Shown here: positions 5,959 to 13,005 of the stretch, piece after piece
Layout: every line of letters begins with the position of its first letter
Position numbering within the stretch: position 1 is the stretch's first letter
Assembly (NCBI RefSeq): GCF_003019035.1
Contig: NZ_CP027447.1
DNA length: 64,000 bases
DNA from: Escherichia coli
Lineage (GTDB): Bacteria; Pseudomonadota; Gammaproteobacteria; Enterobacterales; Enterobacteriaceae
Reading direction: 5' to 3' (one strand)
The notes under the pieces: model-generated
What the model was told of the DNA's origin: nothing
Databases searched by the model: none
The model's input: the letters and a program-made list of their open reading frames with translations, nothing else
Position numbers and translations under genes: made by a program

Positions 5959-6939
5959 TCACCTTTCGCGCCAAAACCGCAAAATTGCTTCTACAAACCT
6001 GTCAGAAATAATCCCCCGACGGGCTGCCGCGCTGAAATGACTGCTTCGCAGTGCCGTCGTCCAGTTCTCCGGTGACCGGTACGCTGAACCGTAATATCCC
6101 GTGCTTAAATCGTCCGGGTCTTCAACAGGCGCGTTCGTCAGTCCTCTTTCACCTTGTTGCTGGAAGTCGACGAAAATAATATTGGCTAAAACATTATTTT
6201 GATAATTGCCATAAATAGCTTCATACGCATGAGGGAAATTTTCTTTCCAGTACCAGGTGGTATCGCCGCAAAACCACGGCGCGTCAGTAATATTATTAAG
6301 CTGAGAATGGTATTGTTTTAGATCCCTACGAAAGGCTTCAACCATATGATTAAAGTGTTGAGGGTGTGACGCGTAGTCACTGGTCATTAAGTCAAATTCG
6401 CCTTGCATCCAGCATACGCCGAGGAATTTGTTCTGCGGATTTTTTGCCAGTGCGGCTCGCGTTCTGCTGACTAAATCCTGGTATAGCGGAGTATCCGTTC
6501 CCCAACGACAAGCATCATGGCTGGCTCCGTGCCGTTCTGAATATGTCCCTTCGCTGCCCGCGGTAAAAGCCGATCCGCCACGGCAACACGGAACGATGAG
6601 AACCCCTGCATTATCAGGAATGAAGGGCAGTAATTTCCGTGCAATATGCAGTGCCTGGCCAACGGTGCCGTACTGTGTTTGATGATTCGTTGCCAGAGGA
6701 TGGTGATAACCCTGCATATCCTGAACATCGTGTGGGCAGTGAGTCAGTGGAATAATGTCGTTAAAGTGACATGACGGGCCTCCGGGATGCGTATGCGCAA
6801 ATCTCGCTAATTGTTTAATTCTGGGATGAGGCGCATCTTCCCCGTCCGGTAATGGCAGTCCTTCGCCATACGCCATGGCATTAGACTGACCAGCAACGGT
6901 AAGAACATAGTAATAATCGGGCGATATTATCGCGTTCAT
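5959..6939 (-). CDS. nanS: Sialate O-acetylesterase NanS (YjhS)
   Basis: 326-aa ORF matching E. coli NanS in length and remembered sequence; synteny nanS-nanM-nanC. Confidence 0.85.
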   Translation of the reverse strand: MNAIISPDYYYVLTVAGQSNAMAYGEGLPLPDGEDAPHPRIKQLARFAHTHPGGPSCHFNDIIPLTHCPHDVQDMQGYHHPLATNHQTQYGTVGQALHIARKLLPFIPDNAGVLIVPCCRGGSAFTAGSEGTYSERHGASHDACRWGTDTPLYQDLVSRTRAALAKNPQNKFLGVCWMQGEFDLMTSDYASHPQHFNHMVEAFRRDLKQYHSQLNNITDAPWFCGDTTWYWKENFPHAYEAIYGNYQNNVLANIIFVDFQQQGERGLTNAPVEDPDDLSTGYYGSAYRSPENWTTALRSSHFSAAARRGIISDRFVEAILRFWRER

Positions 6940-7003: not shown

Positions 7004-8110
7004 TTAGTTTTGTACTGTGACTTTATTATCCTTCACAGAAATTAAAACTGAATCCGTCACCGCTTTGCCGCCTGCAGTTTCACCGCCAATAATTAATAAA
7101 CTATTATTCCAGGGCAATGATACTCCGTAGGCCCGACCTTGCGATAATTCACCCGATTTATCCCATTTCCCGTTATGCCAAAGATGAATATCAGTGCTAT
7201 ATGATTTTTTCAGGCCTTCATGCGCATAGTTCTTACCGTTCTGGTAATTTTCTCGTGAACCTTTGAATCCGGCCCCCCCGGCAAATATAAGAGAATCATT
7301 GCTTATCCCCGCAAAACCGCCAGCGACGCCATCTGGTGATGAGACGGGAGCAAGCTTATTCCATTTTAAATTATTACCGGTGAAATCAAGTTCAAATACG
7401 GCATCCGTTCGCAATCCTGGTTTGGCTTCGCCATTAATAAGCCAGGTTTTATCACCTTTATTCACAACCGCCGCACCAGCCGTTCCGTACCAGGGAGATT
7501 CGCCAGCGTAACTCCATTGCTGTGTTGAGGGATCAAAAGACAACAGAAACTTATTGAAGAAATAATCTTCTGCTTTTTTGTCAAAATAGTGGGCGTTGAT
7601 TTTATCTATAGCGGTTGAATCTTTTCCAGCCTCGTTGAGATCTTCAAAATAGCCATTGAAGATATTCTGGTTAACACCGCCAGTAACATAAGCCTTGCCG
7701 TTGTGTACAAAAGTCACATGACCCGCCATGCCCATCGGCGCGTGCGACATCAATTTAACCCAGCTATTGGTTTTGGGGTTGTATTTGTGTACGTCATTAA
7801 ATACCTGAGTCAAGCCCTCGCTGTTTTTGCCAATGCCGCCAAACACATACAGATTGCCATCAATAAATGCCGAGGTTGCTTGATCTCTTGGTCCGCCAGG
7901 GAATGCAGCTAACGCTGTCCATTTTTTATCTTTGGCCTGTGTATCCAGCTTGTACCATGCCGTACCTGCGCTACCTAAACCAATGTAGACAGTGTCGTTA
8001 TCAATTGCTCCGGTACCACTTTTAAATGCCACAGGAGTTTCCGGTAATACAGACGCGTTTGCGGCAAATGAAGCCATCATGATAGCAAGCGCCGTTATTG
8101 TTTTATTCAT
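7004..8110 (-). CDS. nanM: N-acetylneuraminate mutarotase NanM (YjhT)
   Basis: ORF track 7004..8218; start trimmed to the internal Met MNKTITALAIMM... (signal peptide), giving 368 aa as in K-12. Confidence 0.85.
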   Translation of the reverse strand: MNKTITALAIMMASFAANASVLPETPVAFKSGTGAIDNDTVYIGLGSAGTAWYKLDTQAKDKKWTALAAFPGGPRDQATSAFIDGNLYVFGGIGKNSEGLTQVFNDVHKYNPKTNSWVKLMSHAPMGMAGHVTFVHNGKAYVTGGVNQNIFNGYFEDLNEAGKDSTAIDKINAHYFDKKAEDYFFNKFLLSFDPSTQQWSYAGESPWYGTAGAAVVNKGDKTWLINGEAKPGLRTDAVFELDFTGNNLKWNKLAPVSSPDGVAGGFAGISNDSLIFAGGAGFKGSRENYQNGKNYAHEGLKKSYSTDIHLWHNGKWDKSGELSQGRAYGVSLPWNNSLLIIGGETAGGKAVTDSVLISVKDNKVTVQN

Positions 8111-8129
8111 TGTGACTGTCTCCTGTCTA

Positions 8130-8855
8130 CTACAGTTTAAATGACACACCAATGCGATAACTGTTTTCCGATAAATTATCTCTGCCGTTGTAAACACCCT
8201 GACGGTCCAGGTAGTCATATTCTATGTATGGCGTAATATCGGGCGTCATATGGTATTGTAGAACAAATGCATTTTCCGTCGCCCATTTCTTGTGGTTTGC
8301 ATAGCGATAATCGTTCTGTTTGCTGTATAGCGTCGTTTGCCATGCGAAGGTGAAATCACTATTAATATGGTAAGTGACATATCCATCCCAACGATGAACG
8401 TTATCACGAGACATATCACCGGATAAGTCTTGTTGTCGGTAAGCTTTCCAGTCGTAACGATAGCGAATGCCAAAATTAAGATCTTTTGTCGCGTCCCAGG
8501 ACAGTTTTACGTAGGGTCCGTAGCGTGTGCCGTTGCTGCTAAAATGCGTTAACATTCCCGGGCGCACCGTCCATTGATCATCAAGTTTAATCGCGTAATT
8601 AACTTCAACCTGAACATCATTGAGTGCGGCATTTTCCTTTTTATTATCATGAATGGTATTCCAGGTATTACTTTCCATGCTTGCCCACCATCCATTTTGC
8701 CATCCCTCACTGACTTTGAGTCGAGTCTCATAGGCGTGGCTTCCACTACGATATCCACCACGTACGTCCAGTGTCGCAGCCTGAGAAATTAATGGTGACG
8801 AAAAGCACAGTAATAATACGCCAGAAAGTATTTTAGCCTTTTTCATAAATTTCAC
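8130..8855 (-). CDS. nanC: N-acetylneuraminic acid outer-membrane channel NanC (YjhA)
   Basis: ORF track; signal peptide, beta-barrel-like alternating pattern, C-terminal F-K-L. The true start may be 9 nt downstream (MKKAKILSG...). Confidence 0.8.
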   Translation of the reverse strand: MKFMKKAKILSGVLLLCFSSPLISQAATLDVRGGYRSGSHAYETRLKVSEGWQNGWWASMESNTWNTIHDNKKENAALNDVQVEVNYAIKLDDQWTVRPGMLTHFSSNGTRYGPYVKLSWDATKDLNFGIRYRYDWKAYRQQDLSGDMSRDNVHRWDGYVTYHINSDFTFAWQTTLYSKQNDYRYANHKKWATENAFVLQYHMTPDITPYIEYDYLDRQGVYNGRDNLSENSYRIGVSFKL

Positions 8856-9267
8856 TCATTTGTAGGATACAGAAAGCAATACAAAGCCCGCATAAACAAT
8901 TAGCATTTATGTTGTGTAATATTTTTTTGCCAGGCTTATAGTGTCTTTGGCAACGGGTAACTGTATTTTATATTTTTTGTATAAGGTCTCCTGTGAAAAT
9001 TCTCTTTTCACATTATTTAAATAAACAGAGATCCAGATTAAATACCTGAGTATAAAATCTCTTCTGATGTTTAATTGATTTGAATGTTCGTAAGCTATAT
9101 CACTTACTCAATCCATTTTACCCAGAGTCATAAAATAGAGTGTCTGTTGATCTCATTTTCATATTCCTTTCAGACTGAAGTGCATTTTCATCACCCGATG
9201 TGAAAGAACTGAAGTGATGTTTGCCATAGATTACGAGATGCCCAGTCTCATTGACTATCGTGGTGCA

Positions 9268-9290
9268 CCTTTATACCTGTTATACCAGAT
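9268..9290 (-). promoter_or_regulatory. NanR-operator-like GGTATA repeats in the nanC-fimB intergenic region
   Basis: Minus-strand reading atctGGTATAacaGGTATAaag (plus-strand TATACC repeats at 9272..9286) matches the NanR GGTATA-repeat operator type known for nan promoters. Confidence 0.45.
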
Positions 9291-10299
9291 CAAAAATCAC
9301 GCAATCCATACAACAAAACCAGATTTGCAATTCGTGTCACAAAATATGTCGATCTTTTTCTAAGAGGCAGATGCCATGTGAAGCCAGACGAACACTTGCA
9401 GTGGTCTTCAAAAACTAAAAATTTTCTTTTAAATATATGTTTTATAAATAATTTATTTAGAATCTAAACAAAGAAAGCTTTGCAAGCTAACTCAGTGAGC
9501 TTGGTGAAAATAAGTGTTTACCCGCCATCAGGCTGAGCATAATTCTCACCATGAAATATGTTTCTTGGTTTGTGGCTTGTAACTGGTCACTCCTGATGTC
9601 GATCTGGAGAGGCTTGTTGATGTTGGTGTTTTCAGGATGATGTTTCACTTAGTTTGTTTGCCGTATCGTCCGGCGAATAGCTGTGATTGAGGAAGGTTTA
9701 AGTCGTAGTGACCAAAGCCATATTTACCAACGGATGTAGATGAAAAAGCGTCGCCTGCGTTCCCCCATATCTCCAGGATAAAAAGGAATGTAACAATCTC
9801 GTGGCGTAAGCTGATGAACCAGGCAGGAATAATCGCTAGGGACCTAAGAATTAGCATGATAATAGCCACTAAGAAATAACTGCGTTCCATGAAATAGCCA
9901 TTTTGTGGCAAATGCAGTTGACTAATAATGTCATATGTGAGACGGCTAGTTGAACGAATATTAAATTTTGCTGAATTTTTTATGTTGATTTTACTTGTTA
10001 CAGAACATATCACATGATATATAGATAAGATTAGTTGCATTAATGATGAGGGTTATTATTAGATTCGTATCCGATTGATAAATATATAAAGGTACATAGC
10101 ATGCAAGAGCATGGCGTTTGTATGGCAACGTTATTATAATTAACTGTTGCTACTCTATTTAAGTTCACTCAGAAGAACTGGTCCACTTACGTTAGTTATT
10201 AAGCAAACGTTCGCTTTTATAAACATAATCAGGATTAAAATGTTGGATTATTGCTAACCCAGCACAGCTAGTGCGCGTCTGTAATTATAAGGGAAAACG

Positions 10300-10902
10300 A
10301 TGAAGAATAAGGCTGATAACAAAAAAAGGAACTTCCTGACCCATAGTGAAATCGAATCACTCCTTAAAGCAGCAAATACCGGGCCTCATGCAGCACGTAA
10401 TTATTGTCTGACTTTGCTTTGTTTTATTCATGGTTTCCGGGCGAGTGAAATTTGTCGATTGAGGATTTCGGATATTGATCTTAAGGCAAAGTGTATATAT
10501 ATCCATCGATTAAAAAAAGGCTTTTCAACAACGCACCCGCTATTGAACAAAGAAGTTCAGGCTTTAAAAAACTGGTTGAGTATCCGTACTTCTTATCCGC
10601 ATGCTGAGAGCGAGTGGGTATTTTTATCACGTAAGGGGAATCCGCTTTCTCGGCAACAGTTTTACCATATTATCTCGACTTCTGGTGGTAATGCCGGGTT
10701 GTCACTGGAGATTCATCCGCACATGTTACGCCATTCGTGTGGTTTTGCTTTGGCGAATATGGGAATAGATACGCGACTTATCCAGGATTATCTTGGGCAT
10801 CGCAATATTCGTCATACTGTCTGGTATACCGCCAGCAATGCAGGGCGTTTTTACGGCATCTGGGATAGAGCCAGAGGGAGACAGCGTCACGCTGTTTTAT
10901 AG
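10300..10902 (+). CDS. fimB: Type 1 fimbriae recombinase FimB
   Basis: 200-aa tyrosine-recombinase ORF (…HPHMLRHSCGFALANMGIDTRLIQDYLGHRNIRHTVWYT…); position upstream of fimE. Confidence 0.9.
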   Translation: MKNKADNKKRNFLTHSEIESLLKAANTGPHAARNYCLTLLCFIHGFRASEICRLRISDIDLKAKCIYIHRLKKGFSTTHPLLNKEVQALKNWLSIRTSYPHAESEWVFLSRKGNPLSRQQFYHIISTSGGNAGLSLEIHPHMLRHSCGFALANMGIDTRLIQDYLGHRNIRHTVWYTASNAGRFYGIWDRARGRQRHAVL

Positions 10903-11379: not shown

Positions 11380-11976
11380 GTGAGTAAACGTCGTTATCTT
11401 ACCGGTAAAGAAGTTCAGGCCATGATGCAGGCGGTTTGTTACGGGGCAACGGGAGCCAGAGATTATTGTCTTATTCTGTTGGCATATCGGCATGGGATGC
11501 GTATTAGTGAACTGCTTGATCTGCATTATCAGGATCTTGACCTTAATGAAGGTCGAATAAATATTCGCCGACTGAAGAACGGATTTTCTACCGTTCACCC
11601 GTTACGTTATGATGAGCGTGAAGCCGTGGAACGCTGGACCCAGGAACGTGCTAACTGGAAAGGCGCTGACCGGACCGACGCTATATTTATTTCTCGCCGT
11701 GGGAGTCGGCTTTCTCGCCAGCAGGCCTATCGCATTATTCGCGATGCCGGTATTGAAGCTGGAACCGTAACGCAGACTCATCCTCATATGTTAAGGCATG
11801 CTTGCGGTTATGAACTGGCAGAGCGTGGTGCAGATACCCGTTTAATTCAGGATTATCTCGGGCATCGAAATATTCGCCATACTGTGCGTTATACCGCCAG
11901 TAATGCTGCTCGTTTTGCCGGATTATGGGAAAGAAATAATCTCATAAACGAAAAATTAAAAAGAGAAGAGGTTTGA
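11380..11976 (+). CDS. fimE: Type 1 fimbriae recombinase FimE
   Basis: 198-aa tyrosine recombinase paralogous to FimB; synteny. Confidence 0.9.
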   Translation: MSKRRYLTGKEVQAMMQAVCYGATGARDYCLILLAYRHGMRISELLDLHYQDLDLNEGRINIRRLKNGFSTVHPLRYDEREAVERWTQERANWKGADRTDAIFISRRGSRLSRQQAYRIIRDAGIEAGTVTQTHPHMLRHACGYELAERGADTRLIQDYLGHRNIRHTVRYTASNAARFAGLWERNNLINEKLKREEV

Positions 11977-12023: not shown

Positions 12024-12337
12024 TTGGGGCCAAACTGTCCATATCATAAATAAGTTACGTATTTTTTCTCAAGCATAAAAATATCAAAAAACGACAAAAA
12101 GCATCTAACTGTTTGATATGTAAATTATTTCTCTTGTAAATTAATTTCACATCACCTCCGCTATATGTAAAGCTAACGTTTCTGTGGCTCGATGCATCTT
12201 CCTCATTCTTCTCTCCAAAAACCACCTCATGCAATATAAAAATCTATAAATAAAGATAACAATAGAATATTAAGCCAACAAATAAACTGAAAAAGTTTGT
12301 GCGCGATGCTTTCCTCTATGAGTCAAAATGGCCCCAA
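12024..12337. promoter_or_regulatory. fimS: fimS invertible promoter element (fim switch), apparently in OFF orientation
   Basis: 9-bp inverted repeats TTGGGGCCA (12024..12032) and TGGCCCCAA (12329..12337) bound a 314-bp element. A sigma70-like promoter (-35 TTGAGA at 12072..12067, 18-nt spacer, -10 TATGAT at 12048..12043) lies on the minus strand, reading toward fimE rather than fimA. Confidence 0.7.
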
Positions 12338-12456: not shown

Positions 12457-13005
12457 ATGAAAATTAAAACTCTGGCAATCGTTGTTCTGTCGGCTCTGTC
12501 CCTCAGTTCCGCAGCGGCTCTGGCTGATACTACGACGGTAAATGGTGGGACCGTTCACTTTAAAGGGGAAGTTGTTAACGCCGCTTGCGCAGTTGATGCA
12601 GGCTCTGTTGATCAAACCGTTCAGTTAGGACAGGTTCGTACCGCATCGCTGGCACAAGAAGGAGCAACCAGTTCTGCTGTCGGTTTTAACATTCAACTGA
12701 ACGATTGTGACACTACTGTTGCAGACAAAGCTGCTATTGCCTTCCTTGGTACCGCAATTGATGGAACTCATCCTAACGTATTAGCTTTGCAGAGTTCAGC
12801 TGCGGGTAGCGCAACAAAAGTTGGTGTGCAGATCCTGGACAGAACGGGTGCTGTGCTGGCGCTGGACGGTGCGACATTCAGTGAGCAAACAACCCTGAAT
12901 AACGGTACTAACACCATTCCGTTCCAGGCGCGTTATTATGCAACCGGTGTCGCAACCCCGGGTGCTGCTAATGCGGATGCGACCTTCAAGGTTCAGTATC
13001 AATAA
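12457..13005 (+). CDS. fimA: Type 1 fimbrial major subunit FimA
   Basis: 182-aa pilin with signal peptide and C-terminal ...KVQYQ. Confidence 0.9.

Follow-up and report, generated by a model that had tools for sequence, protein, structure and literature searches.

Identity of a predicted NanR operator between nanC and fimB in an Escherichia coli strain other than K-12

Do the GGTATA repeats that lie between nanC and fimB in this Escherichia coli genome represent O_NR, the NanR operator described for the same intergenic region in K-12, and has anything within the operator changed? The window, which is the whole stretch of 64,000 nucleotides (64 kb) that was analyzed, contains this intergenic region together with the flanking sialic-acid and fimbrial genes, and an earlier note had assigned the repeats to the NanR operator type. 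The site is identified here, with a probability of about 93%, as O_NR, the operator assigned to NanR between nanC and fimB in E. coli, and NanR binding is predicted at this position on the basis of sequence; four lines of evidence bear on the identity, namely orthology, paralogy, position and literature. The operator has already been described in K-12, its sequence is unchanged here and it represents no new biology. Through such an operator, host-derived free sialic acid, which is released in inflammation, would be tied to phase switching of the type 1 fimbriae, which serve E. coli as a major adhesin and virulence factor, and the link with sialic acid has been known in K-12 for two decades; the value of the present check lies in the correct annotation of the window and in the confirmed conservation of the site.

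Organization of the locus and of the operator

The features observed in the window are listed in Table 1. The translations of NanC and FimB and the gene order agree with those of the annotated MG1655 and of strain LR-28. The hexamers are separated by 418–440 bp from the nanC ATG (8846) and by 1014–1036 bp from the fimB ATG (10300). The sialic-acid operon downstream of the operator comprises nanC, nanM and nanS on the minus strand, running from 8846 down to 5959, and the downstream targets on the other side, which include fimB, fimE and the fimS element, are intact in the window. The nanR gene is located outside the 64-kb window; of the 5426 complete E. coli genomes, 5408 contain it, and the genome of the present strain very likely carries it. 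An ATG open reading frame of 131 codons was also observed on the minus strand at 9645-10040, wholly within the nanC-fimB intergenic region and overlapping the SlyA and H-NS sites; neither MG1655 nor LR-28 has this frame annotated, and in DNA so rich in AT it is probably spurious.

Table 1. Coordinates of the genes and sequence elements observed in the window.
Feature	Position	Strand	Basis or remark
nanS	5959-6939	-	ORF and annotated orthologues
nanM	within ORF 7004-8218	-	ORF and annotated orthologues
nanC, first gene of nanCMS	8130-8846	-	ORF; translation MKKAKILSG...; orthologue annotation
nanC-fimB intergenic region	8847-10299		1453 bp
Third hexamer GGTGCA, non-canonical	9264-9269	-	AA (9271-9270, 2 nt) after hexamer 2
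Predicted NanR operator hexamer 2, GGTATA	9272-9277	-	ACA (9280-9278, 3 nt) after hexamer 1
Predicted NanR operator hexamer 1, GGTATA	9281-9286	-	exact pattern match; same in K-12 nanC, nanA and nanX operators
Dam site GATC	9288-9291		one base (T 9287) from hexamer 1
CRP-like TGTGA-N6-TTGCA, putative	9326-9341	-	alignment; same register as AGTGA-N6-TCGCA upstream of nanA operators
Second GATC	9351-9354		
SlyA operator O_SA2, CTAGGGACCTAA	9836-9847	+	exact match
SlyA operator O_SA1, TTAGCATGATAA	9851-9862	+	exact match
fimB, recombinase gene	10300-10902	+	ORF, 200 aa intact; orthologue annotation
fimE	11380-11976	+	ORF, 198 aa intact
fimS invertible element	12024-12337		314 bp
fimA	12457-13005	+	ORF and annotated orthologues

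Read on the minus strand, the window from 9291 to 9264 is composed of GATC-T-GGTATA-ACA-GGTATA-AA-GGTGCA, and the plus strand at 9260-9299 reads gtggtgcacctttatacctgttataccagatcaaaaatca. Two direct repeats with a spacing of 2–3 nt, the arrangement that defines a NanR operator, are present as GGTATA-ACA-GGTATA (9286-9272, minus strand), and a third hexamer that begins with GGT is found 2 nt after the second repeat, where GGTGCA keeps the GGT and agrees with GGTATA at 4 of 6 bases. NanR reportedly blocks methylation of the GATC that abuts the operator, in work said to be that of Sohanpal in 2004. The 18-mer GGTATAACAGGTATAAAG is matched on the minus strand at 9269-9286 with 0 mismatches, and no other match occurs in the 64-kb window at a tolerance of up to 3 mismatches, with 0.03 matches expected from shuffled sequences. 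On the other hand, single GGTATA hexamers occur 27 times on both strands of the 64 kb, which equals the chance frequency, and the loose two-repeat pattern (≤2 mismatches) was found twice with 3.1 occurrences expected, again at chance level; the weight of the identification therefore rests on the exact tandem arrangement together with orthology and homology. The earlier note had located the operator at 9268-9290, which is right to within 1–2 bases, and its distances (about 420 bp to nanC and about 1 kb to fimB, in a region of about 1.4 kb) and its naming of nanC and fimB agree with the values and translations given above, while its description of the operator held for the GGTATA repeats and left the third hexamer GGTGCA and the abutting GATC undescribed.

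Comparison with K-12 and with the nanA and nanX operators

The whole intergenic region and its counterpart in K-12 MG1655 are colinear in the alignment, and window positions 9262-9346 (85 bp) are identical between the two. The window is from an E. coli other than K-12, and across the nanC-fimB intergenic region it shows 99.9% identity to LR-28 and 95–99% identity to most other complete genomes. About 2–3% of the positions of the region differ from K-12 overall, with the differences clustered at 9421-9476, whereas the nearest mismatch to MG1655 is a single base at window position 9261, 3 nt past GGTGCA. The O_NR of K-12 occupies the same locus as the window site, with the same flanking genes and the same position relative to the fimB landmarks, and both GGTATA hexamers, the GGTGCA and the adjacent GATC are identical, so that no difference is observed inside the operator.

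The position relative to fimB was likewise compared with that published for K-12. The SlyA operators have been placed at -194 to -167 (McVicker et al. 2011, PMC3173223), and the exact matches to them at 9836-9862 set the fimB transcription start near 10030 (about 10029-10030), from which the three hexamers lie at -766 to -744. O_NR has been published at about -760 from the fimB transcription start, as given in PMC3173223, citing Sohanpal et al. 2004, and the hexamers fall where the distal fimB control region of K-12 is located. In addition, nanCMS is one of three operons with a GGTATA-repeat operator (Horne et al. 2021, PMC8012715), and the nanC/fimB spacer was recovered as the NanR target by genomic SELEX (Shimada et al. 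2018, PMC5934670).

The K-12 nanA and nanX (yjhB) operators each contain GGTATANNNGGTATA, and the alignment of nanA, nanX, K-12 nanC and the window revealed an invariant block of 27 nt, TTGATCTGGTATAACAGGTATAAAGGT, with 27/27 bases shared, as well as further similarity among the nanA, nanX and nanC operators over about 60 nt upstream of the block. The K-12 nanA (nanATEK-yhcH) operator, whose (GGTATA)3 sequence is the site of the cryo-EM and binding work on NanR (Horne et al. 2021, PMC8012715), has the same 27-nt block, the same placement of the GATC and a CRP-like site upstream in the same register as the window site; however, its third hexamer is GGTATA whereas that of the window is GGTGCA, it lies about 39 bp from the start codon whereas the window site lies about 420 bp from nanC, and no second, distant target gene has been reported for it. 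The K-12 nanX-nanY (yjhBC) operator carries the same block, which three further T's on its upstream side bring to 30 nt, has the GATC in the same place, and resembles the window operator in its untranslated distance of about 400 bp from the gene, whereas its third hexamer is the canonical GGTATA and it is located in the KpLE2 region next to IS4, not in a divergent region shared with a fimbrial recombinase gene. AGTGA-N6-TCGCA is conserved upstream of the nanA operators in the anchored consensus of 85 nanA promoters, and a CRP-like half-palindrome precedes each of the three K-12 NanR operators, as well as the nanA operators of about 25 genera, at a constant distance. This suggests that nanA, nanX and nanC share a promoter-operator module of about 75 nt, which may have been copied to the three operons.

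Distribution, conservation and the third hexamer

An exact scan of species-representative genomes detected the 20-mer core GGTATAACAGGTATAAAGGT at 90 loci. Of these, 86 occupy the nanR-nanA intergenic region, with the core about 39 bp upstream of the start of nanA; they represent about 25 genera, among them Citrobacter, Enterobacter, Kluyvera, Raoultella, Rahnella, Buttiauxella, Salmonella and Hafnia, and tie the core tightly to NanR-regulated promoters. The remaining core loci comprise two nanC-fimB-type Escherichia sites, one nanX-type fragment and one nanR-adjacent locus, the last with no nanA match within the DNA examined. A position weight matrix was derived from 42 unique nanA-type 31-mers of other genera, with nanC-type sites excluded, and the matrix is strict since its training sites were picked by exact core match. 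The window site scores 42.2 bits and the weakest training site 43.3 bits, while the next best position on either strand of the 64 kb reaches -2.8 bits, 45 bits lower than the window site. The assignment to the NanR operator type proposed in the earlier note is borne out by the exact 18-mer and by the 27-nt block shared with the K-12 nanA and nanX operators; a location off the mapped K-12 site and a poor score with a NanR matrix had been named there as what would speak against it, and the site aligns with the published position and obtains the score given above.

Three public assemblies with non-enterobacterial labels (L015, L081, L084) were also observed to carry enterobacterial NanR-operator DNA, and they probably represent contamination or mis-binning. 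In a contig of a 'Bacteroides' MAG, FimB of E. coli is matched at 100%; a contig of 265 bp labelled 'Methylobacterium mesophilicum' matches the E. coli nanX operator; and a contig of 'Chryseobacterium sp. 18061' has a nanR-nanA region much like that of a Citrobacter sp. 18056 contig.

Within E. coli, the 81-bp region around the site was found in 5097 of the 5426 complete genomes, and 4868 of them contain 28 nt or more of the nanC-specific 32-mer TTGATCTGGTATAACAGGTATAAAGGTGCACC as an exact match. Judged from these matches, about 90% of complete E. coli genomes have kept the operator. In the alignment of six diverse strains, the stretch from about 9365, with the CRP-like site included, down to GGTGCACC is invariant apart from a single T>C, which an O157-like strain carries just ahead of the GATC, and substitutions set in directly downstream of the operator. 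An equally sharp conservation boundary at the operator was observed for a divergent Escherichia representative (L090).

Differential patterns were observed for the third hexamer among the 90 core occurrences (86 at nanR-nanA), which is GGTATA in 45, GGTATG in 21, GGTACA in 16 and another sequence in 8; because the third hexamers vary in this way, the GGTGCA at nanC is no bar to membership. Two GGTATA repeats are bound with a Kd of about 25 nM and form only two complexes, which is enough for nanomolar cooperative NanR binding, whereas one repeat binds poorly and falls short of this (PMC8012715). In the nanA operator of E. coli PEC41, 28 nt of the nanC-type 32-mer are matched and the third hexamer begins with GGTG, not GGTA, indicating that E. 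coli strains differ in the third hexamer at nanA as well. At nanC, the non-canonical hexamer GGTGCA with its flank (GGTGCACC) may possibly be functional, as the exact 32-mer that contains it is kept in about 4800 E. coli genomes and the bases just downstream vary, but we consider it rather unlikely that they are functional rather than decayed. The nanC-type operator might then differ from the nanA and nanX sites in NanR stoichiometry or in sensitivity to the inducer. NanR has been reported to remain bound in vitro to the nanC/fimB spacer when Neu5Ac is present (Shimada 2018, PMC5934670), which does not fit a simple release on induction; a variant operator, if functional, could explain this persistence in the SELEX, and fimB and nanC would in that case answer at another sialic-acid threshold than the catabolic operon.

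Predicted regulation and the DNA between the operator and fimB

For this strain, we infer NanR occupancy, nanC repression, fimB activation and a sialic-acid response by analogy with the K-12 literature. NanR dimers without sialic acid would bind cooperatively to the direct repeats, which comprise two GGTATA and a GGTGCA in the third position; bound NanR would repress the adjacent nanCMS promoter and, jointly with NagC, would raise fimB expression from about 750 bp away, and more fimB expression would favor FimB-mediated OFF-to-ON inversion of fimS. Neu5Ac would reduce the affinity of NanR, leading to induction of nanCMS and to lower fimB expression and type 1 fimbriation. NanR and NagC activate fimB in K-12 (PMC3173223), sialic acid lowers fimB expression and FimB-mediated switching (PMC3173223; PMC8777976), Neu5Ac weakens NanR binding to the three-repeat operator about 28-fold (PMC8012715), and NanR binding affects Dam methylation at the operator GATC (review, PMC11316696).

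A scan of the intergenic region for the sigma-70 consensus gave 3 sites with 5.9 expected, none of them at or near the operator; repression of nanC may act by occlusion or as a roadblock. If the CRP-like site acts at a spacing of -61.5, the nanC start might tentatively be set near 9272, with TATAAC as the -10 element. The Rfam scan of 8700-10400 (E-value ≤1) returned no RNA family in the stretch of about 420 nt between the operator and nanC.

In the distal fimB control region of K-12, an IHF site and the NagC operators O_NC1 and O_NC2 are reported to occupy the stretch from O_NR to about -470. In the same interval of the window, a crude scan with the NagC-like pattern TTTW-N9-WAAA yielded one candidate at 9452-9468, and a search for the exact IHF consensus WATCAANNNNTTR found no match; from these crude searches, neither the two NagC operators O_NC1 and O_NC2 nor the IHF site could be mapped convincingly. 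The second GATC (about -679 from the fimB start) lies in the block 9339-9368, which is invariant in six E. coli strains, and it reads TATC in two other Escherichia sequences (L015, L090); this may be the place of the NagC operator O_NC1 and of its methylation-protected GATC.

A polymorphism hotspot was observed at 9395-9500, 130–200 bp from the operator towards fimB, within well-conserved surroundings. The hotspot is densest at 9421-9476, where about 14 substitutions in about 56 bp separate the window from MG1655, as against about 2% elsewhere, and one GATC of K-12 is lost. The 106-bp segment 9395-9500 has a megablast match in 1390 of 5426 E. coli genomes and is identical only in LR-28, whereas the operator segment, 130 bp from the hotspot, is matched in 5097. 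Relative to the start of fimB transcription, the hotspot lies at about -609 to -554 and falls between the reported NagC operator positions, and divergence at 9395-9500 could alter the long-range effect on fimB.

These differences bear on a narrower reading, according to which the NanR operator would work for nanCMS only and would have no influence on fimB in this lineage, the intervening DNA having diverged from K-12. The substitutions and the lost GATC at 9421-9476, together with the small share of genomes in which 9395-9500 is matched, would be in keeping with it, as would the NagC and IHF architecture that this intervening DNA is reported to house and the description of fimB control as multiple independent factors (McVicker 2011, PMC3173223). 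However, K-12 and four other diverse strains have exactly the window's sequence over the block that extends from the second GATC (9351) across the operator, K-12 also shares with the window an identical fimB, identical SlyA sites and an identical stretch of about 200 bp surrounding the estimated start of fimB transcription, and the segment 9395-9500 is variable across E. coli generally and is not special to this strain; a loss of the influence on fimB is regarded as improbable. Far less credible still, to the point of being negligible, is the explanation of the GGTATA repeats as a chance AT-rich match or as promoter -10-like elements with no repressor bound. Single GGTATA hexamers and loose two-repeat matches are indeed at chance level in the window, and TATAAC and TATAAA look like -10 hexamers, but a site that overlaps promoter elements can still be an operator, and such an overlap is no alternative to operator function, the identity over 27 nt with two experimentally studied operators cannot be chance, the core is located at nanR-nanA in nearly all of its occurrences across genera, and the nanC/fimB spacer is a NanR SELEX target (PMC5934670). 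A chance origin of the repeats was rejected on the 0.03 expected matches of the exact 18-mer and on the gap of 45 bits between the matrix score of the site and that of its runner-up.

The fimS element (Table 1) is bounded by 9-bp inverted repeats at 12024 and 12329, which read TTGGGGCCA and TGGCCCCAA, and its orientation is that of the MG1655 reference, with 98.4% identity as it stands and 31% when inverted. The TTGAGA...TATGAT sequence, which we take to be the fimA promoter, points towards fimE, which presumably corresponds to phase OFF.
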